Origin: Candidatus Saccharimonadota bacterium
Lineage (GTDB): Bacteria > Patescibacteriota > Saccharimonadia > Saccharimonadales > JACDBH01
Length of the DNA stretch: 64,000 nt
Reading direction: 5' to 3'
NCBI GenBank assembly: GCA_028289135.1
Contig: JAQGGW010000005.1
Coordinates: 2,941 to 66,940 of the forward strand
The notes under the pieces are model-generated. The model saw nothing but the letters and a program-made list of their open reading frames with translations, had not been told where the DNA came from and did not search any database. The position numbers and the translations under genes are program-made. Of this stretch, positions 50,612-63,200 are shown one piece after another. Positions within the stretch are counted from its first letter, which is position 1, and every line of letters starts with the position of its first letter.

Positions 50612-50908
50612 GTGGATACTACTAATTCATCACCTGCACTGCAGGGCGGCCTGCATTATTGCGATATTTGCCGCCAGCCAGGCAATGTGCGCTATCTGCT
50701 TTTAACGCAAAGAACCGGCATGTTAGTAAGCCGCGAAACCAGAACTTTCCGCGGAAATATGTGCCAAGACTGCGCAGCAAGGCTGCATAAAAAAGTCCAG
50801 ATCCACAACCTGTTTTTGGCATGGTGGGGGACTATTAGTTTTTGCTTGGCGCCATTTACGTTGATTGCTAATACCGCTCGGTACGTTCAGTTTAGACGTT
50901 CTCTATAA
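50612..50908 (+). CDS. Small zinc-ribbon protein with a C-terminal TM helix (GTG start)
   Basis: 98 aa with CDIC...CQDC and a hydrophobic C-terminus. Confidence 0.5.
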   Translation: MDTTNSSPALQGGLHYCDICRQPGNVRYLLLTQRTGMLVSRETRTFRGNMCQDCAARLHKKVQIHNLFLAWWGTISFCLAPFTLIANTARYVQFRRSL

Positions 50909-51689
50909 GTTGATAGTAAGCTTGTTTACGACGATCACCATGTTTAGTTAAGCGATTGCCAATATTAACAAAAAACTGCGCGTATTCAAGGTTGGTAAAA
51001 ATTGGTTCTGTACTGTCGGTTTCTTTTAAGACCATAAGTTCGTATATGGCATCCATATGACTATCGTATGCTTCTGTGGCAGGATAGTTAGCCGCTGTAA
51101 GGGTTTCGTTAATTACCGAATGTCTTAGTGTGTCTATTGGCAAACGAATTGGGCGTGCCCAAAATGTGCCGCCTTCCTTTGTTTGGCTTAATGCACGCTC
51201 CATTGCTGCCAATGGGTCACCAAACCAACGAAGTCCAAGCTGGGAAAACACGATATCAAATCTTTCATCTGGCCTGACTACGCGTTCCCAGAAGTCTGCA
51301 TTACCTACACGTAGGTCAACGCCGCTTGCTCTAATGCGATTAAGCTGGCCAGGTTTTAGCAGCCCAGCCGGATGGCCTGTTATACCCACCACTGCAACAT
51401 CATCTCCAAATTTTTCTTTGAGCTGTATCATTTGAGTGCAGGCACCAGCTCCAATATCAAGCACGGAAACTTGCTGGCCGCCATTAAATTCGAGTGCCTC
51501 ACTCACTAAGGTTACGGAGTTTACATCAGGGTCGCCAATTTGCTCATATAACTCTTCTTCGCCCTTGTGTGTATAGCGTTTATACTGCAGGGAAGATGCT
51601 TCAGCGGCGTAGCCTTTATGTAGCATTGTAATAAGTCCCGGCACATCACCGCGGCGTTGGTCTAAAAATAACTGTACCTGAGCACTCAT
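50892..51689 (-). CDS. Class I SAM-dependent methyltransferase
   Basis: Motif I VLDIGAGAC; 265 aa. Confidence 0.8.
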   Translation of the reverse strand: MSAQVQLFLDQRRGDVPGLITMLHKGYAAEASSLQYKRYTHKGEEELYEQIGDPDVNSVTLVSEALEFNGGQQVSVLDIGAGACTQMIQLKEKFGDDVAVVGITGHPAGLLKPGQLNRIRASGVDLRVGNADFWERVVRPDERFDIVFSQLGLRWFGDPLAAMERALSQTKEGGTFWARPIRLPIDTLRHSVINETLTAANYPATEAYDSHMDAIYELMVLKETDSTEPIFTNLEYAQFFVNIGNRLTKHGDRRKQAYYQLIENV

Positions 51690-52608
51690 TAGTATATATT
51701 ATAACATTAAAATAATTAGACGACAAACACCACGAATACCGGAGTACTCGTGGTTAATGTGTTCTCTTTGTGCGCGTAAAGGTGCAATGTCTCATTAGGA
51801 GGAGAACATATTGTCTCGGGCCATGCCCGCGCACTAGCTATGGTTTCGTATGCATACGGCCGTATGTACGATGTTTTGCATTATTGTTTGATAACAGCTC
51901 TTTATACTCTGTACGTCCCAAGGCTTAATGCGCCTGAATGAGGGATCTTTACACGTTCTTGCTAGGCAAAAAGGAGCGTATCATTTGTTTTCAGCAAACA
52001 GGTGCCGGGTAGGCGGTGGACCGCACCATGCTGCCATTCCATCCAGTGGCCGTTCCAGATTTCTCCAGATTGGCTTAGAAGGTCAAGCGAGCACCATGCG
52101 ACCGGACCGCATCGGCCACCCTCCGCAGTCTTCTTATAGCAAAAGACTTGGGTGGTTTCACATAATCATGATTTTTTGTCACCCGCACACCTGGTTTTGA
52201 TTATTGCCCGATGCGCATACCTCTCTCGAGGCGATCCTGCGGCTTTAGTCCTGCGTAGCGGCTTATTAAGCTACTAACCGGCATCTGCCTGCTGCTAAAA
52301 CATTTGTGATACGGCTATTTTGCGCTTTTGCTCTCCGATGCTCCCTCGATGTATTTCTGTATACACCTTCGGTCCGCTTCTCGAGCAAAAGCACAAACTA
52401 GCTCGTTCAAAATGTTTTAGACATACGTCTGCAAAAGACGTAAAAACGAAAATTTCTTAAATTATTTATATTTAAACTATTGTAGAAGAGAATACGTTTG
52501 TAGCTCCAGTGTAGCACAGATTATTGATTTTGTCAAGAGCAATCTTCTTTATAGTGCTTTTGTTTAGTCAACATTTATGGTTTATAGTGGTCATCCAAAG
52601 AGGTAATT
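51690..52608. other. Unassigned ~0.9-kb interval without a credible ORF; candidate large structured RNA or decayed sequence
   Basis: The only ORF of 60 aa or more (51928-52200) has non-protein-like composition. Many strong local helices, for example 51731-51756 and the 10-bp stem 52324-33/52383-92. Confidence 0.5.
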
Positions 52609-52611
52609 ATG
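52601..52611 (+). repeat. Left copy of an 11-nt direct repeat, AGGTAATTATG
   Basis: Identical 11-mer at 63248-63258. It overlaps the radC RBS and start codon. Confidence 0.3.
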
Positions 52612-53256
52612 AAGATATCAGAACTTGAGTTAATAGATCGCCCGCGCGAAAAACTTGCAGCAAAAGGTGTGAAGAATTTGTCGGACTTTGAGTTGCTCCA
52701 GTTAATTATCGGGAGCGGCGTATTTGGGGCAGATGTAACAGTTATTGCAAAAGAAATTAAAAAACTTCTAGATAAATATGGTTATTTAGTTACCCTAGAT
52801 CAGCTGAAGGATATTAAAGGCGTCAGCCTTGCAAGCGCAAGTAAAATTCTTGCTACTTTTGAACTAAGTCAGCGATATACAGTGCAAGATGGGGTTCAAG
52901 TTAAATCCGTTGAAGATGTTTTGCCGCTCTTAAGCTACATAAGAGATAAAAAGCAGGAATATTTTGTTTGCATAACACTCGATGGTGCAAATAGAGTTAT
53001 TGCAACTCGCACTATTACAATTGGCACACTTACTAATTCGCTAGTCCATCCGCGTGAAGTTTTTGCCGACGCTATAACTGATCGTGCGGCGAGCATAATA
53101 ATTGCCCATAATCATCCAGGTGGAAGCCTGAACCCAAGTGACGCAGATGACGATGTCACCATAAGCATAAAATCTGCAGGAAGCATTCTTGGCATTCAAC
53201 TTTTAGATCATCTTATAATTACGAAGCTTGACTACAAAAGCATTATAAATGGTTAA
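52609..53256 (+). CDS. radC: RadC-like JAB/MPN domain protein
   Basis: 215 aa with the HNHPGG JAMM motif and an N-terminal HhH-like region. Confidence 0.88.
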   Translation: MKISELELIDRPREKLAAKGVKNLSDFELLQLIIGSGVFGADVTVIAKEIKKLLDKYGYLVTLDQLKDIKGVSLASASKILATFELSQRYTVQDGVQVKSVEDVLPLLSYIRDKKQEYFVCITLDGANRVIATRTITIGTLTNSLVHPREVFADAITDRAASIIIAHNHPGGSLNPSDADDDVTISIKSAGSILGIQLLDHLIITKLDYKSIING

Positions 53257-53300: not shown

Positions 53301-53495
53301 ATGAAAGCGCCATCCAGCACTCGTAGAAAGAAAGCAGTTTCTGCTGCTGTTTGGTCTGTTAAAGCAGAGGGCCTTCGGCCTACAAAGGCAGCCTCAAAGA
53401 GCCTTGGATCTTACGCATCAGGCAAAATCTCTGCCAAACAATTACGTGCGGAAACAGCACGCAACGTAAAGAACCTGCTTCGAACATCCAAATAG
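53301..53495 (+). CDS. VbhA-type antitoxin of the Fic toxin
   Basis: 64 aa containing SVKAEG, which fits the (S/T)xxxE(G/N) inhibitory motif. Its stop lies 1 nt before the fic ATG. Confidence 0.75.
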   Translation: MKAPSSTRRKKAVSAAVWSVKAEGLRPTKAASKSLGSYASGKISAKQLRAETARNVKNLLRTSK

Positions 53496-53496
53496 T

Positions 53497-54117
53497 ATGG
53501 CCTATATAATAAAGAACGATCCGTATATTGATCCGGAGTTTGGGGTGCTGCGCAACAAATTGGGTATTATTAGTCAGAAAACTCTCGATGAGGTGGAATT
53601 TACAATTACTTCAACTGAGATCGCGATTTTAGAAGAGAATATTATTAGGGGTGAATTCGATTTAAATCATTTAAAAGCAGTGCACAAAAAGATATTTGGT
53701 GATCTGTATGAGTGGGCTGGCGAAATACGGACAGTGGATATGGGCAAAGATGATACGCTTTTTGCTCATGCAGAATATATTGTGCCGAGTGCAAATGTAT
53801 TATTTGCAGAACTCAAAAATGAAAATTTTTTAAAGGGTCTTAAAAATCCAGAATTTGTAGAGCGGTTTGCGCACTATTATTCTGAAGTTAACATCCTGCA
53901 TCCTTTTCGGGAGGGCAATGGCCGAGCCCAGCGAGCGTTCTTTACACTTTTGGCAAGATATTCTGGCTGGCACGTAGCATGGGACCAAATGATTCAGGAC
54001 GACAATATAGCCGCTAGTGTTGCGGCATATAATGGCGACGAAGAGCCATTGGTTGAGATTTTACTTCCTTTGTTCGAATGGGTAGATGAGGACTATTGGA
54101 ATCTTGGCTTGGCATAG
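53497..54117 (+). CDS. fic: Fic-domain protein (AMPylase-type toxin)
   Basis: Intact HPFREGNGRAQR active-site motif; 206 aa. Confidence 0.9.
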   Translation: MAYIIKNDPYIDPEFGVLRNKLGIISQKTLDEVEFTITSTEIAILEENIIRGEFDLNHLKAVHKKIFGDLYEWAGEIRTVDMGKDDTLFAHAEYIVPSANVLFAELKNENFLKGLKNPEFVERFAHYYSEVNILHPFREGNGRAQRAFFTLLARYSGWHVAWDQMIQDDNIAASVAAYNGDEEPLVEILLPLFEWVDEDYWNLGLA

Positions 54118-54164: not shown

Positions 54165-56573
54165 ATGACCAAAAAAGAAGCTTATTCCCGGGTGGTGATT
54201 GATCGCAAGCTGCGTGAAGCTGGTTGGGATATTGAAGACGAAGAGCAAGTTGTCTTTGAAGATCATAGCACCGCCGGCAGAGCTGACTATGTATTAAAAG
54301 ATTCAAAGGGCATGCCCATAGCGCTTATTGAGGCAAAAGCACCTGAGATTGACCCATATAATGCTAAAAAACAGGCTCGTGATTACGTTGACCTTCAATA
54401 CAAACAGATTGATTTTATATATTTGGCCAACGATCAAAAAATATATTTTTGGGATCTGGGGCATGGCGATGCAGTGCCGTCAGACAGCGGCTTTTTCTCG
54501 CAAAGCGATTTAGAACGAAGACGCGCATCCGGCCGCGTAAATAATGTTAGCCCATTGCTCCAAGAAGCTATAGATACAGATTATTTTAAAGATATTACCG
54601 ATCAGATAAAACTTCGTGATTACCAACTAGACGCATGGAATGCTATTGCAACCAATTATGACGAAAAGCAAAAACGTGCCTTCTTGCTTGAGATGGCAAC
54701 CGGCACGGGCAAAACCGTTCTGGCAGCCTTAATTATTAGCAGATTCTTGCGTACTAATAATGCAAGCCGAGTACTATTTATTGTTGATAGACAGTCATTG
54801 GCAAACCAAACAAAAGGTACTTTTGAACAGCTTCTTCGTAATATTTCCACAGTTGGGGTTTATTGGGGCGGCAAAAGGCAAAACCTTACAGGCAGCAATG
54901 TAGTTATCGCAACTATTCAGTCCCTCGGGCTACATGGTAAAAAAGACTTTACGCCAGGGGCGTTTGATTTAATTATTCACGACGAAGCTCACAGAAGTAT
55001 TTATACGCCTGAGGCGAGGGCAGCGGTTGATCATTTTGTGGGTGCGACAAAAATCGGTCTTACGGCCACGCCTCGTGATTTCTTAAAAAATATTGATATT
55101 GAACAGCTTAGCAATGACGACCCACGTGCTTTAGAGCGCCGCATTCAACGCGATACATATCGTTACTTTGGCTGTGAAAATGGTGTGCCAACATTTCGAT
55201 ATACAATTCAGGACGGCTCAAAAGCTGGCTATTTAATTGAGCCGGTTTACCGTAAGGCAAACACCTCGCTTACGTACCAAGCCCTGAGTGATCAAGGCAT
55301 AACAAAGTTAGATGATGTAGAGCTAGAAGAAGGCACAAGCCTTAAGATTCGTGACTTAGAGCGAAAAGTATTCTTTCCGAAGCGCAATCGTGCAATGATG
55401 CAAGAGTTTTTAGACTACGCAGATTATGCGCCAAACGGTGAAGTAGGCAAGACTTTGATATTTGCAGTTTCGCAGAATCACGCACTTGCTTTAACAAAAA
55501 TTCTGAACGAATTAACGCCAGAATATAACGGCCGCTTTGCCGAAGTTATTACAAGCCGCGTGCATGGGGCACATGAGATAGCCAAAGATTTTGCAAACCT
55601 TAATAACAAACTGCCACGCGTTGCCGTTACTGTTGATATGCTTGCGACAGGCTTTGACGCGCCAGAAATTCTGAACCTTGTCATGGCACGTGCAATTTAT
55701 GACCCTACAACCTATCAACAAATGAAGGGCCGCGGTACACGGCTATGTCCAGAAGTTAAAAAGGAGCGCTTCGTAATTCATGACTTTGCCGGTGTCATTG
55801 ATTACTTTGCTGAAAAGCATGACTGGGATGTTCCGCTGAATGCTCCAGCTAATAAAGTTTACGGTACGGCTGTAGAATCAGTAGAAGAAACAATGCCTAT
55901 GATTCGTGGATCTGCAATTGGTGAGCCGATACAAGAGTATGTTCGTGCGAGTGATATACCTACAAGCAATATGCAAGATTTTATCGCTACACGTGACGTG
56001 GTGCAGTACGGTCTTGGCGAGGGCGATGTTGTTGACAGGAATATGTACCAGGACGAATGGACCAAAGCGGTTCATAACTATGTAAAAGAAAATCGAGAAA
56101 AAGTCGAGCAAGTTATTGACGATCCAGAGCAACTAGACGAGCTCATGGTAGATATTAACCGCGAACTTTTGGACCGACCAAAATATTACTTTAATGAAGA
56201 GACCTTACAGCAAAGTCACCGAGTTATAGCTGGCGTAAGAGATTTTTTCTTGGCGGCACTCGGTAAGACAAAATTACCAACACGTGATGAACAGCTAGCG
56301 GAGTTTAAGCAAGGCCTCGTGAATAAATTTGCCGACAGCGAAGGTGGCGCATCACAGCGTCGCACGCAAATGGTCAAATATTTGGCGGATCACCTTATGG
56401 GTGACCATAAACTTGTTTTAGCAATACGGCTGGAGGGTAACTTATCATTTTTAGCTAAACCAGAATTTGCACAGGCATATACAACCCGCGACTGGCTTGC
56501 AGAATTTAAAGACAAAGATGAACTTTTGGAATTAATTAGTGATATAGCTGTAAACCCGCTACTAAAGGTTTAA
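54165..56573 (+). CDS. hsdR: Type I restriction enzyme R subunit
   Basis: N-terminal PD-(D/E)xK-like GRADYVL...IALIEAKA, helicase motif I MATGTGKT and motif II HDEAH; 802 aa. Confidence 0.9.
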   Translation: MTKKEAYSRVVIDRKLREAGWDIEDEEQVVFEDHSTAGRADYVLKDSKGMPIALIEAKAPEIDPYNAKKQARDYVDLQYKQIDFIYLANDQKIYFWDLGHGDAVPSDSGFFSQSDLERRRASGRVNNVSPLLQEAIDTDYFKDITDQIKLRDYQLDAWNAIATNYDEKQKRAFLLEMATGTGKTVLAALIISRFLRTNNASRVLFIVDRQSLANQTKGTFEQLLRNISTVGVYWGGKRQNLTGSNVVIATIQSLGLHGKKDFTPGAFDLIIHDEAHRSIYTPEARAAVDHFVGATKIGLTATPRDFLKNIDIEQLSNDDPRALERRIQRDTYRYFGCENGVPTFRYTIQDGSKAGYLIEPVYRKANTSLTYQALSDQGITKLDDVELEEGTSLKIRDLERKVFFPKRNRAMMQEFLDYADYAPNGEVGKTLIFAVSQNHALALTKILNELTPEYNGRFAEVITSRVHGAHEIAKDFANLNNKLPRVAVTVDMLATGFDAPEILNLVMARAIYDPTTYQQMKGRGTRLCPEVKKERFVIHDFAGVIDYFAEKHDWDVPLNAPANKVYGTAVESVEETMPMIRGSAIGEPIQEYVRASDIPTSNMQDFIATRDVVQYGLGEGDVVDRNMYQDEWTKAVHNYVKENREKVEQVIDDPEQLDELMVDINRELLDRPKYYFNEETLQQSHRVIAGVRDFFLAALGKTKLPTRDEQLAEFKQGLVNKFADSEGGASQRRTQMVKYLADHLMGDHKLVLAIRLEGNLSFLAKPEFAQAYTTRDWLAEFKDKDELLELISDIAVNPLLKV

Positions 56574-56577
56574 AACA

Positions 56578-59043
56578 ATGGCAGAATTTAATACCGCAGA
56601 CCTACACAAACAAGTTGACCGTCTTATGGATATTTTCTTTGGGGCGGGTGTTGCAAGCCACCCAACAATTATTGAACAGATTAACTACCTGCTATTTATG
56701 CGCGCACTTTCTTATAAGGATGACGAATATCTTGCACTTGGCATTAATGATGCCGACACGATTGTTTTTGACGGTGAGCTTGAAAAATATCGCTGGGAAA
56801 ACTTACTGAGTCTAAATGCTGAAGCATTGTTTGTAGCGCTTGAAGATTGCTTTCGTAAAATTCCAGAAAGCACAAACAATAAAACGGTTCGTTTAGTTTT
56901 TCGAAATGCGCATATAAAACTGTTTGATAAGCCGAGTCTGCGGGTTGTAGTGCATGAAATTGATGCCTTTGCCAAACTGATGGACGAAGGAGAACATGAA
57001 GGTAAACACGATATTTTCGGTGATACATATGAATACTTGTTGAGTAAGCTTGCGCAAGCCGGTACTTCTGGCCAGTTCAGAACGCCGCGCCACATTATTG
57101 AGTTTCTTGTAGCAGTAGTCGCGCCTAAAAAAGGCGAAACTATTCTCGACCCAGCCGTCGGCACGGCTGGTTTTTTAGTGAAAGCTTTTGAATATTTGCG
57201 AAAAGAATACACATCGCCGGAACAGGCAGCCACGGGTGGTGCATTCGATAAGCTAAGCTCCAAAGAACATACATTTTTGTACGAACATACCTTTACTGGC
57301 TTTGACAGCGACGAAGACATGATTAAATTTGGCATGATGAACCTGTACCTTCACGGCTTGCAGAATGCGCATCTTGTGCGCCAAAACACACTTACCGACA
57401 CTGCTGGTAATCGCGATAAATACGATATTATTCTGGCCAACCCGCCTTTTAGTGGCAAGATTGACCGCGACAGCGTGGCTCAAGAGCTGCAAATGAATAC
57501 AGGAGCAACGGAAGTTCTATTTTTGCGTTATATGCTAGAGCATTTGACCGACAGTGGCCGTATGGGTGTGATAGTGCCAGAGGGCGTGATTTTTAATGGC
57601 TCAAGTGCACATGTTAAAATTCGCAAAATGCTTATTGAAAGTGGGCTTTGGTGTGTAGTGAGCCTCCCAGCGGGGGTCTTTAACCCATATGCGGGTGTTA
57701 AAACATCTATAGTTTTTATAGACAAATCCCTAAACAAAAATACTGAAATATTATTTGCCAAAGCTGAATCTGATGGTCTTAGTTTTGGTGCGCAGCGTCG
57801 CCCTATAATAAGAAACGATATACCGGGTATTTTGAGTGGTATAAAAAACCTTAAAGCGGGTATACCTTCAGAGTCTATCCATGTGCATAGTGTTAACAGA
57901 GATATGATTATAAATAGCAAAGACTATAACCTAAATGGTGATCGCTATAAAACTGTTGGCACTAACATGCTTTCGCAATGGACGCATACCGAGCTTAGTA
58001 ATGTGGCAAGAATTGAAAAGGGGAAATCATCTTCTACTAAAACTGAGCCTGGAGAGTACCCCCTAGTTCTTACAGCAAAAAATAGTAAAACTTCTAAAAA
58101 TTATGATTTTGAGGGCGAAGCAGTTCTTGTGCCACTTATCTCTGCGACAGGCCACGGTAAATCTGATATTAAAACAATTCATTATCAGAAGGGTAAGTTT
58201 GCTGCAGCAAATTTACTAGCAGTAGTTATGCCAGATCCTAATAAATGTGATGCAAAATATCTGCGTTTGTATTTAGATTATAAGAAAGATTACATCGCTA
58301 AAACTAAAATGTCTGGAGCAGCTAACAGGAGTATGAAGTTAGAGGATTTACACGATGTTCCTATCCCTCTACCGACTTTAGACATTCAGCATCAAATTGT
58401 ATCTGAAATTGATGGTTATCAAAAAATTATTGATGCTGCTAAAATAATTGTCAAATTTTATAAACCAGCTGTCAAAATGAATCCAGACTGGGATATCTCT
58501 AGCCTCGAGGATGTCTTTGATATGGTAAATGGCAGAGCTTTTAAAACATCGGAATGGTCGGATGCAGGAATTCCTATAATCCGGATCGCTAACCTAAACG
58601 GGGAATCCGCGAAGTATAACTATTACTCCGGTAATTATGACGACAAAACGCTTGTAGAACCTGGCCAACTGCTATTTTCTTGGTCTGGTACAAAAGGCAC
58701 ATCCTTCGGACCACATCTATGGCAGAGAAAAGCTGGGCTTTTAAATCAGCACATATTCAAGCTTAATCCAAAAGGAATTCCTATTGATTTGACGTTCGCC
58801 TACCACTATTTGAAAGCAATCGTGCCTGAAATAGAAGCAAAAGCACATGGATCAGGCGGCTTAGTACATATTACGAAGGGAGAACTTGGCAAGTTTAAAA
58901 TCCCTACTCCTGAGATTAGTGAACAAAGAAAAATAGTTGCCGCACTCGAAACAGAGCAGCAACTTATAAATGCAAACAAAACACTAATCGAAACATTCCA
59001 GCAAAAAATTAAAGATAAAATCGCAGAAATTTGGGGTGAATAA
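56578..59043 (+). CDS. hsdM: Fused Type I methyltransferase-specificity polypeptide (HsdM domain plus a complete two-TRD HsdS domain)
   Basis: N-terminal HsdM_N-like region, SAM motif ILDPAVGTAGFL and catalytic NPPF. Residues from about 470 to 821 contain two TRD-like blocks, each followed by a helical spacer (LDIQHQIVSEID..., ISEQRKIVAALE...). Confidence 0.85.
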   Translation: MAEFNTADLHKQVDRLMDIFFGAGVASHPTIIEQINYLLFMRALSYKDDEYLALGINDADTIVFDGELEKYRWENLLSLNAEALFVALEDCFRKIPESTNNKTVRLVFRNAHIKLFDKPSLRVVVHEIDAFAKLMDEGEHEGKHDIFGDTYEYLLSKLAQAGTSGQFRTPRHIIEFLVAVVAPKKGETILDPAVGTAGFLVKAFEYLRKEYTSPEQAATGGAFDKLSSKEHTFLYEHTFTGFDSDEDMIKFGMMNLYLHGLQNAHLVRQNTLTDTAGNRDKYDIILANPPFSGKIDRDSVAQELQMNTGATEVLFLRYMLEHLTDSGRMGVIVPEGVIFNGSSAHVKIRKMLIESGLWCVVSLPAGVFNPYAGVKTSIVFIDKSLNKNTEILFAKAESDGLSFGAQRRPIIRNDIPGILSGIKNLKAGIPSESIHVHSVNRDMIINSKDYNLNGDRYKTVGTNMLSQWTHTELSNVARIEKGKSSSTKTEPGEYPLVLTAKNSKTSKNYDFEGEAVLVPLISATGHGKSDIKTIHYQKGKFAAANLLAVVMPDPNKCDAKYLRLYLDYKKDYIAKTKMSGAANRSMKLEDLHDVPIPLPTLDIQHQIVSEIDGYQKIIDAAKIIVKFYKPAVKMNPDWDISSLEDVFDMVNGRAFKTSEWSDAGIPIIRIANLNGESAKYNYYSGNYDDKTLVEPGQLLFSWSGTKGTSFGPHLWQRKAGLLNQHIFKLNPKGIPIDLTFAYHYLKAIVPEIEAKAHGSGGLVHITKGELGKFKIPTPEISEQRKIVAALETEQQLINANKTLIETFQQKIKDKIAEIWGE

Positions 59044-61942: not shown

Positions 61943-62779
61943 ATGTCACCGAAGTTAATTTCTATATTTTTGCCTGATGGTAACCCAAATGCTTTAAAGA
62001 TTGCAGAAATATCGAACCGTAATATACGGGCACTTTTAATTCCTCGCCCAAAACTTACAGATGCAATAGCAAGAGTTGAGCTAAATCAGCCCGCGCTTTA
62101 TGTGCTTACGGATAGAGATGCAAGTGAAATTTATATCGGTGAATGCGAAAACTTTTTGCACAGAGTAAAATCACATGACCAAAAGAAAGATTTTTGGGAT
62201 GTTGCATTAGTGTTTGTAGCCAAAGACAGTTCGCTTGAAAAAGGGGATGTAAAATATCTAGAATCCTTAGCCGTAGAAATAGCAAAGGACGCTGAACGTA
62301 CTAAAGTTACTAATCTCACTGTACCGGCACGTAATAATTTACATGAATTTAAAGCTCAAACTATATTAGAATTTTTTGACGATCTCAAGCTACTTATTTC
62401 TGCACTCGGTTATCCTGTGTTTGACAAAATAAAAATTGAAGAAAAAAATGAATCTGAATTTTGGTATTGTGATAGACGTCTCACGAAGGCTAAAGCTATT
62501 TATGACGAAAACGGTTTCACGGTGATTAAGGGCTCGATTATAGATGCTACTGTCCAGCCATCATTATTAAAGTATTATCCATATGCTGTCAAAGAGCGAG
62601 AAGAACTTATATCACAAAAGGCATCCCTGAATCACGATAAAGTTTCATATACACTAAAAGAGAATATTACTTTCAGCAGCGCAAATAAGGCAGGCGGCTT
62701 TGTTGTCGGTGCCAATATAAATGCTTGGACAAACTGGAAAAATAAGGCCGGTAAAACAATGGACGAGGTTTTGCGTTAA
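61943..62779 (+). CDS. GIY-YIG-like nuclease family protein with a DUF4357-like C-terminal domain
   Basis: ALYVLTD....EIYIGECENFLHRVKSH...KDFWD...VF pattern. The C-terminus FTVIKGS...S.ANKAGGFV.G resembles DUF4357. Confidence 0.7.
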   Translation: MSPKLISIFLPDGNPNALKIAEISNRNIRALLIPRPKLTDAIARVELNQPALYVLTDRDASEIYIGECENFLHRVKSHDQKKDFWDVALVFVAKDSSLEKGDVKYLESLAVEIAKDAERTKVTNLTVPARNNLHEFKAQTILEFFDDLKLLISALGYPVFDKIKIEEKNESEFWYCDRRLTKAKAIYDENGFTVIKGSIIDATVQPSLLKYYPYAVKEREELISQKASLNHDKVSYTLKENITFSSANKAGGFVVGANINAWTNWKNKAGKTMDEVLR

Positions 62780-62783
62780 AATT

Positions 62784-63200
62784 ATGGAAGAAAATGTAAA
62801 GAAAAACTTCTGGCTCTATACTTTAGCTTTAAGCGATGGAAAATATTATGTGGGTATTACTGCGCAACGAAACCCATACGTACGTATCAATCAACATGGA
62901 AAATTTGCGAGCGCTGCATGGACTCATAAACATAAACCGCTAAAAGAACCACTTATTGAACTTAAAAAACTCGGATATATGACATATGTAGACGCCAAAA
63001 AGTTAGAGTCTGAGACGATGATGGAGTATGTGAAAAAATATGGGCAAAATAATGTACGTGGTGGTAACGTGAACTTTACTGAAGATTCTATAAAAATAGG
63101 TAACAGATTTTGGCTAAAAGATGATTTTAGTACAACAATATTAGTAACAACCCTTTGTTTAATGATTATATTTTTGAGCATAGCTTACCAGCTAAAATGA
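62784..63200 (+). CDS. Small GIY-YIG domain protein with a C-terminal TM helix
   Basis: FWLYTLALSDGKYYVGITAQ...R..QH and VRGG motifs. The C-terminus ILVTTLCLMIIFLSIAY is hydrophobic. The ATG at 62784 lies 4 nt after the upstream stop; the track ORF starts earlier, inside the upstream gene. Confidence 0.65.
   Translation: MEENVKKNFWLYTLALSDGKYYVGITAQRNPYVRINQHGKFASAAWTHKHKPLKEPLIELKKLGYMTYVDAKKLESETMMEYVKKYGQNNVRGGNVNFTEDSIKIGNRFWLKDDFSTTILVTTLCLMIIFLSIAYQLK

Follow-up and report, generated by a model that had tools for sequence, protein, structure and literature searches.

A 919-nucleotide (nt) interval between a methyltransferase gene and radC in a Candidatus Saccharimonadota bacterium very probably holds a genuine structured RNA gene on the minus strand. 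The interval (51690-52608) lies in a 64,000-nt stretch of contig JAQGGW010000005.1 (assembly GCA_028289135.1), which we analyzed as a whole and refer to as the window, counting positions from its first letter. We hold with high confidence that the interval is a self-contained gene for a highly structured non-coding RNA of ~0.6-0.8 kb, transcribed from the minus strand and equipped with its own promoter and terminal hairpin. An initial annotation, made from the letters of the window, had put forward an unclassified large structured RNA as its leading inference. That inference is upheld by homologues at the nucleotide level, covariation, a conserved promoter and terminator, and the lack of a match in Rfam 15; the strand of the RNA (minus), the limits of its transcript and the choice of native helices go beyond what the annotation proposed.

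The gap itself is real, running from the methyltransferase start at 51689 (minus strand) to the radC start at 52609. Under a greedy tiling of the window with open reading frames (ORFs), 51690-52608 is the largest uncovered stretch (runner-up 343 nt, median 54 nt), and the tiling divides it by a single ORF of 90 amino acids (aa), leaving 408 and 238 nt. This ORF (51928-52200) is the sole one of ≥60 aa in the interval, as had been reported. The guanine plus cytosine content of the interval's centre is high (0.50-0.55 at 51900-52400), and the part on the radC side is AT-rich (0.30-0.38 at 52400-52600).

Homologues and covariation of the core

Homologues of the RNA were reached through an open frame. 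Using phmmer with the longest one (51895-52197, plus strand) against 1.84 billion representatives, we found five odd "proteins" of 62-160 aa, rich in Arg, Gly, Pro and His, each on one short metagenome contig. Those contigs align with window positions 51715-52328 at 71-82% nucleotide identity over 270-625 nt. A DNA pattern scan of metagenomes with the invariant blocks described below added two more contigs, and look-ups of flanking genes gave longer versions, including two full-length loci, L102 and L108. The family so far contains ten homologue contigs, the window and its Logan copy, and two 3′-end fragments; the collection searches used exact patterns and this count is a lower bound. A core of ~300 nt is conserved at 55-92% identity across contigs from soil and rhizosphere metagenomes. 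These contigs probably come from Saccharibacteria. Several of the samples also contain the window's closest relatives (ERZ27252107, Ga0068858), and one flanking gene of a homologue locus is 59% identical to a gene in a Saccharibacteria metagenome-assembled genome. Additionally, a covariance model (R1) built on one arm of the core, H9-H12, scores 98-118 bits on every family member and finds nothing else in the 606 kb searched, the whole window included. Searching with a phantom ORF is an effective route to non-coding homologues in indexes that hold only proteins.

The core (51995-52291, minus strand) is common to all homologues. We aligned eight sequences of it with MAFFT on sequence only (alignment A3) and derived the structure with RNAalifold, which gave 92 pairs with canonical pairing in 95.9% of the cells. 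Changes on both sides are seen in 41 of the 92 pairs, compared with 17.0±2.8 in 500 column shuffles (0/500 reach 41) and with 3-11 pairs after the partner columns are shifted by 1-3 positions. The core reaches a covariation score of 0.399, the controls 0.05-0.09; variable positions make up 42 of 106 unpaired versus 104 of 181 paired positions. Strong compensatory covariation, in an alignment that was not fitted to a structure, is the general hallmark of an evolutionarily conserved structured RNA, and the core carries it.

Folding of the interval exceeds chance. The z-score of the minimum free energy for 51725-52510 is -8.3 on the minus strand versus -5.0 on the plus strand, and local 150-nt segments give signals that are confined to the minus strand or strongest there: 52000-52149 folds at -65.0 kcal/mol on the minus versus -45.2 on the plus strand (z = -4.3 for the minus strand), and 52250-52449 reaches z = -6.4. 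G-U pairs account for 16.6% of the pair cells of the core and several of them are invariant, so that the canonical fraction is 95.9% on the minus strand versus 81.4% if the plus strand were the RNA. Because the invariant G-U pairs would fail on the opposite strand, the RNA strand is the minus strand.

The core is closed by a 17-base-pair helix, H1 (52291-52275 with 52011-51995), in which 14 of the 17 pairs have changed on both sides, and inside H1 is a five-way junction of H1, H2, H4, H8 and H9. The H2 hairpin, GUAGC[UUAAUAAGYY]GCUAC (52255-52274), has a stem that is 100% identical in 8/8 sequences, with variation only at the Y positions of its loop. H2 is joined to H4 by a 13-nt single-stranded junction linker, GCAGGACUAAAGC (52242-52254), which is invariant in 8/8 and served as a search anchor. 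The H4 domain (52159-52241) carries H5, H6 and H7, and pairs with double changes are found in all four helices (H4 6, H5 3, H6 4, H7 3); H5 is a hairpin with a GAGA tetraloop (52232-52219), the H6 loop holds the invariant AUAAUCAAAACC, and the H7 loop is A-rich. H8 (ACCACCC / GGGUGGC; 52115-52156) encloses a variable hairpin and the invariant ACUGCGGAGG, and it alternates between CCACCC/GGGUGG and CUAUCC/GGAUAG with three doubly changed pairs. The long arm H9-H12 (52013-52113) contains the invariant GACCUUCUAAGC and UGGAAYGGC and ends, in the RNAalifold structure, in H12 with a GAAA tetraloop (52074-52049). Altogether, the invariant unpaired blocks of the core are GCAGGACUAAAGC, AUAAUCAAAACCAGG, ACUGCGGAGG and GACCUUCUAAGC.

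The individual helices listed in the initial annotation were found within ~1 nt of where it had placed them, the palindromes excepted. These overlapping palindromes do exist, at 51847-51866, and had been placed ~10-20 nt further along. The GTAGC-n10-GCTAC repeat lies at 52255-52274 and is helix H2. An ATGCG-n7-CGCAT hairpin is likewise present in the sequence (52097-52113), but it competes with H9/H10, which the comparative data favour; probably it is not the native form, and the long-range helices H9 and H10 are formed instead.

An invariant GGAGG is followed after 7 nt by an invariant AUG at 52125-52110 (minus strand), in the H8/H9 part of the core. A small ORF behind this site was considered and rejected: it has 5, 9, ~45 and ~60 codons in different homologues and is not conserved. 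Because the ORF length differs in this way, a conserved peptide is unlikely; ribosomes may nevertheless bind at the site.

Promoter, transcript limits and peripheral domains

The predicted promoter of the RNA gene is of the sigma-70 type (52508-52536, minus strand), with a -35 box TTGACA (52536-52531), a 17-nt spacer and a TG-extended -10 box TACACT (52513-52508), matching the consensus at 10/12 positions together with the TG. The sequence TTGACAAAA...GTGCTAnnnT is kept in five loci (the window, L108, L097, L102 and L096), and the distance from the promoter to the conserved 5′ sequence is equal in L108, L097, L102 and L096, even where the adjoining RNA is unalignable. In comparisons of distant members, conservation of the promoter region (TTGACAAAA ... 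GTGCTA) exceeds that of the 5′ RNA domain next to it. Such high conservation hints at an extra regulator-binding site or at a strong constraint on the expression level.

From the positions of promoter and terminator and the limits of homology, we predict a transcript of ~770-785 nt (51716-52500, minus strand). It would start at ~52501-52499, at the conserved ACAAACG-UAUUCUCUU, and end past the terminal hairpin, within GUUUGUCGUC. Homology to L093, L098 and L108 is bounded by the -35 box on one side and by a point ~14 nt beyond the terminal hairpin on the other. This hairpin, which the initial annotation had placed at 51731-51756, was found at 51729-51754 and resembles an intrinsic terminator (ACCACGAG..CGUGGU, then GUUUGUCGU). 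It is kept in L093, L094, L098 and L099 with a varying loop and one covarying pair, and L096 has an analogous hairpin. A separate promoter for the methyltransferase, outside the RNA, is predicted at 51698-51726 on the minus strand (TTGTCG-17-TGnTATAAT).

The molecule is closed by a terminal helix in which UUCUCUU (52486-52492, minus strand; inverted repeat I6) pairs with AAGAGAA (51762-51768). Both strands are kept in every homologue that reaches them, and in L096 the helix is longer, at 13 base pairs (CAAACG..UUCUCUU / AAGAGAACGUUUG). Between the terminal helix and the core, the peripheral 5′ and 3′ domains are swapped between two subgroups. A variable 5′ hairpin domain (52295-52420, minus strand; inverted repeats I1 and I7, z = -6.4) holds the 10-base-pair stem of the initial annotation, which we locate at 52314-52333 / 52383-52402. 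This domain is present in the window, L098 and L108; L096 is without it, and L095, L097 and L102 carry a different, larger 5′ domain, of ~230 nt in L095/L102 and L097, where the 3′ domain is missing. The 3′ domain (~210 nt; 51769-51994, minus strand) is confined to one subgroup, made up of the window, L093, L094, L098/L108, L099/L105 and L096. Alignment A4 with RNAalifold gave 59 pairs for it, in the form of a GCAUACGGCCGUAUGC hairpin, a GGGC-AUG-GCCC hairpin, a hairpin with the loop CUCCUAAU and a GUGCGCG/CGCGCAC helix. The CGGGC-CAT-GCCCG palindrome noted earlier was found at 51817-51829.

The covarying hairpin at ~51785-51800 (minus strand) displays the loop CUCCUAAU, stem and loop together reading UCUCCUCCUAAUGAGA. 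The loop contains CCUCC, which is like an anti-Shine-Dalgarno sequence, and is kept in 5/6 members of the subgroup; L096 has GACCUUAU.

Coding, leader, known-class and mobile-element explanations

The initial annotation had offered as its second inference the remnant of a decayed gene, such as an island integrase. That the interval is such a remnant, or that the 90-aa ORF is a real small-protein gene, is extremely improbable. The open frame at 51895-52197 does have "protein" relatives in public sets with E values down to 8e-32, and these relatives conserve a core, GGGPHxAA[IV]PxRG..RF.Q..LEG; however, they are 62-160 aa long with unrelated ends and an R/G/P/H/C-rich composition, and one of them, P0013, reads across three different frames of the window. 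Variable columns are spread evenly over the codon positions (21/46, 23/47, 25/46), the substitutions are compensatory across helices, and no gene was called in the interval in its copy in Logan SRR13312994. The ten longest segments between stops (≥48 aa) gave no Pfam match at the cut-off, even with E≤10 allowed. A maintained frame, an excess of third-position changes and similarity to a protein family are all missing, for a protein-coding gene and for a pseudogene alike: there is no Pfam trace, no codon periodicity, and the frame of the ORF is not kept in the homologues. A role of the RNA as a cis-regulatory leader (a riboswitch- or attenuator-like 5′ untranslated region) of the methyltransferase, or as a regulator of the divergent radC, is highly improbable as well. 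The RNA does lie directly upstream of the methyltransferase on the same strand, and in L093, L095/L102, L096 and L097 the next gene is also on the RNA strand, but across the family there are six unrelated 3′ neighbours (the methyltransferase, Lyase_1, an unassigned 173-aa protein, Phd-like/Doc, a GIY-YIG-like protein and a convergent gene of 145 aa), and L098/L099/L105 have the following gene in the opposite, convergent orientation. In the window, the methyltransferase comes after the terminator-like hairpin and has a promoter to itself; the sole homologue of this methyltransferase has a 115-nt upstream spacer without the RNA, and ~80 radC loci do not have the RNA either. Because the downstream genes differ in every locus type, with one convergent, the RNA does not behave as a cis-acting leader.

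We also consider it very unlikely that the RNA belongs, in strongly diverged form, to a known class of large RNAs, such as transfer-messenger RNA (tmRNA), RNase P RNA, group I or II introns, or OLE, ROOL, GOLLD or raiA. The resemblances are superficial: the UAAUAA loop of H2, which we take to be similar to tmRNA helix 5, the pairing of the 5′ and 3′ ends, and GGACUAAAG, which presumably resembles both tmRNA GGACUAAGC and the group I "R" element GACUAAA. Against them, Rfam 15 (4227 models) at gathering thresholds detects only 4 transfer RNAs (tRNAs) in the window, and on 51500-52800 at E≤10 it returns only noise (SNORD42, MIR5294 and BTnc005, 12-19 bits), with no match inside the interval that bears on these classes; on six homologue contigs it has no match inside the RNA, and ARAGORN finds no tmRNA. 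Inspection of the sequence and the alignment reveals no T-arm or CCA end, no GGAAAGUCC or ACAGAA P4 motifs and no domain V, GUGYG is not conserved, and, in contrast to an intron, the RNA has a promoter of its own and lies within no host gene. Less remote, though still unlikely, is the idea that the RNA belongs to a mobile or defence element, as a working part or as cargo: it might be a partner, decoy or regulator of Fido-fold (Fic/Doc) toxins, serve the replication or maintenance of an integrated element, or mark a preferred integration site next to which islands build up. Of the four loci for which both flanks are known, three have a Fido-fold toxin-antitoxin module within ~1 kb of the RNA, each with its own gene order and orientation: a VbhA-Fic module near the RNA gene in the window (53301-54117), another in L102 (3633-4460) that ends 17 nt before the RNA promoter, and a Phd-like-Doc module in L096 (365-951) immediately downstream of the RNA. 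Other neighbours include Type I and Type ISP restriction systems and an IS1595 transposase; the genomes closest to that of the window have no such RNA at this position, and closely related RNAs (92% identity) have different flanks. On the other hand, a sample of four loci with both flanks is tiny, and since the Fic proteins of the window and L102 are 46% identical, two of the three cases may share ancestry. The 3′ side of L099/L105 is core-like (TrxB, glutaredoxin, RND pump, FKBP, Nudix), the adjacent genes include none for an integrase, a reverse transcriptase or replication, tandem repeats of the kind seen in type III antitoxin RNAs are absent, and viral-contig scans (3/4 empty, the fourth with a chance match) and the phage and plasmid collections give no support. 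The recurrent Fic/Doc position could reflect a functional link, or the RNA gene could merely lie in or beside variable islands; a functional link between the RNA and Fido toxin-antitoxin modules seems doubtful to us.

The 90-aa ORF (51928-52200, plus strand) is spurious and lies antisense to the core; it has no Pfam match, and its relatives P0012-15 and P0018 differ in length and frame. P0012, P0013, P0014, P0015 and P0018 (loci L093-L097, from ENA, JGI and Logan gene calls) are antisense translations of the RNA core and thus annotation artefacts, meaning that several public "hypothetical proteins" are mistranslations of the strand opposite the RNA. Alternative genetic codes were considered too. 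Each of the six frames has 13-17 stops of all three kinds, and because every kind of stop occurs in every frame, recoding rescues no ORF and this explanation is ruled out.

Specific RNA classes were rejected one at a time. For tmRNA, the codons before the UAA of H2 are not conserved (tails RLVA, GAVA, WVVA, LVVA, LLVA, PAVA) and lie in helix H1, and no member of the tmRNA clan of Rfam matches. Bacterial RNase P RNA is excluded by the lack of a match to RNaseP_bact_a, RNaseP_bact_b or the archaeal model at E≤10 and by the absence of the GGAAAGUCC and ACAGAA..GGCUUA motifs. Neither Intron_gpI, Intron_gpII nor group-II-D1D4 matches, a promoter and a terminator belonging to the RNA itself are conserved, and a GUGUGCG at 52189 is not conserved among the homologues. 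The covariance models of the OLE, ROOL, GOLLD, HEARO and raiA families do not match either. A type III toxin-antitoxin RNA was set aside for its lack of tandem or direct repeats and for neighbouring toxins, Fic/Doc, that have protein antitoxins, and an element resembling a miniature inverted-repeat transposable element for its lack of convincing terminal inverted repeats or target duplications.

Several points weigh against the reading of the interval as an independent minus-strand RNA gene. The eight aligned sequences, three of which are mutually 91-98% identical, represent ~six distinct lineages, and our statistics ignore phylogeny; because the sequences are few and partly redundant, the covariation rests on few independent events. 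Covariation lends no support to helices H2, H3 and H9, which are invariant, and the 3′ domain is more weakly supported than the core, with double changes in 15 of its 59 pairs. The family looks rare, for which searching by exact patterns may be the reason. The ends of the RNA and its expression are drawn from a predicted promoter and terminator and from the limits of homology, and action in trans, a partner and an activity are proposals.

Genomic context, possible function and comparison with known RNAs

Synteny with the nearest relatives (TypA-MetK-Zn-ribbon) ends after the Zn-ribbon gene, at ~50560. The genes that come next in the relatives are absent from the window; one relative has WhiB and a 63-aa protein there, the other, at 54% identity, Pup, Pup ligase, AAA_33 and WhiB. 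Because the relatives continue with other genes, the methyltransferase, the RNA and the following RadC, VbhA-Fic, type I restriction-modification, AAA-ATPase (AAA_15), DUF2130 and GIY-YIG genes together have the look of an inserted, variable segment of at least 13 kb, from ~50560 to at least 64000. No integrase of this segment was seen within the window. The initial annotation had described the interval as bordering a defence island; as a simple border this does not stand, and the RNA and the methyltransferase lie instead inside the segment that is missing at this position in the nearest relatives. Three synteny searches agree on the absence of the RNA elsewhere: none of 80 genome loci reached via radC (mostly Saccharibacteria, best 62% aa identity) shows the element in blastn, nhmmer or covariance-model searches; the one methyltransferase homologue (43% identity) does not have it; and relatives reached via the Zn-ribbon gene (54-66% identity) do not have the RNA segment after TypA-MetK-Zn-ribbon. 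Blastn against phage and plasmid collections gave no match. Pattern scans of viral contigs found nothing in 3/4, and the fourth yielded a 31-nt match (L101; nhmmer E 0.016 over 40 nt) that we attribute to chance.

The neighbouring genes have peculiarities of their own. The methyltransferase (50892-51689) is a near-orphan, with one homologue (43% identity) among 5.8 billion clustered proteins, and weakly resembles the PADLOC mad2 model. Directly after HsdR (54165-56573), the type I methylase and specificity subunits are fused in an 821-aa ORF (56578-59043; N6_Mtase and Methylase_S). The far end of the island (61943-63200) has a pair of overlapping ORFs that resemble GIY-YIG nucleases, one of them additionally matching DUF4357, and in L097 a weakly GIY-YIG-like 145-aa ORF (127-564) directly follows the RNA.

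How the RNA might act can be proposed by analogy. We tentatively suggest a trans-acting RNA that serves as a scaffold, works in a ribonucleoprotein or is of the ribozyme type, although other modes of action together are somewhat more probable. As such it would act in trans and not as the leader of a neighbouring gene. Its helices would build a rigid scaffold, with GNRA loops of the kind typical for tertiary docking, and this scaffold may hold the invariant nucleotides of junction and loops in place, as a site where a protein, another RNA or further copies of the RNA bind or where catalysis occurs. This view is modelled on other "ornate" large bacterial RNAs (PMC12286853) and on raiA/ModT (PMC11706538). 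The Fic/Doc and restriction neighbourhood would further point to a role in variable defence or mobile regions, or to carriage by them. It is a concrete, testable hypothesis that arises from the recurrence of this neighbourhood; if the RNA works with or against Fic/Doc, it would be the first RNA partner of the Fido toxin superfamily. That it represents a new class of ornate 0.6-0.8 kb RNA of soil Saccharibacteria with a biochemical role of its own, as a ribozyme, a self-assembling RNA or a Fic/Doc-related RNA, we regard as rather unlikely.

Bacteria of the candidate phyla radiation (CPR) have tiny genomes and are thought to lose all dispensable sequence. Because such a small genome keeps an RNA of ~0.8 kb under a near-consensus promoter, retention of this non-coding sequence suggests that it has an important job. 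Our literature searches for the invariant sequences and for structured RNAs of Saccharibacteria found none, and no lineage-specific structured RNA for the CPR is described in the literature searched. With no Rfam match and no fitting Saccharibacteria RNA in that literature, the RNA is, as judged from its sequence, a new family of the rare "large, ornate" size class. To our knowledge, bacterial RNAs of more than ~500 nt with dense covarying structure are very few: ribosomal RNAs, group I and II introns, OLE, GOLLD and ROOL. Each known large bacterial RNA has led to unexpected biochemistry, and the present RNA adds a CPR member to this short list. Cryo-electron microscopy of ornate large RNAs has revealed RNA-only cages and dimers (PMC12286853).

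Like OLE, ROOL and GOLLD (PMC12286853), the RNA appears to have a stand-alone gene, a large size, a fold in which many covarying helices meet in multi-way junctions and carry GNRA loops, unpaired nucleotides that do not vary, and a narrow taxonomic range; ROOL and GOLLD are likewise near mobile elements. It differs from these three in showing no likeness to them in sequence or structure, as their Rfam models fail on it, in its host, which belongs to the Saccharibacteria/CPR, and in lacking a tRNA or prophage neighbourhood and OapA-type partner genes. With the raiA motif RNA, or ModT (PMC11706538), it shares being conserved, independently transcribed as far as its predicted promoter indicates, and highly structured while being neither a riboswitch nor a classic base-pairing small RNA. 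The raiA RNA, in contrast, is ~200 nt long and occurs in Bacillota and Actinomycetota, and Rfam gives no match for our RNA (PMC11706538 for raiA). The likeness to tmRNA (ssrA) consists of the UAAUAA hairpin loop of H2, a 5′ end that pairs with the 3′ end, a hairpin preceding the 3′ strand of this pairing, and the islands beside the gene, whereas the RNA is about twice the size of tmRNA and has neither a tRNA-like domain (T-loop, CCA) nor a conserved tag frame ahead of the UAA, where the sequence forms the 5′ strand of H1. RNase P RNA and the self-splicing introns differ from it by signature sequences and pseudoknots that are absent here, by the lack of an Rfam match and, for an intron, of a host gene; what the RNA has in common with them is the size class, a terminal helix that closes the molecule, a compact core rich in junctions, with tetraloops of the GNRA type and conserved single-stranded junctions, and lineage-specific peripheral domains arranged on that common core.

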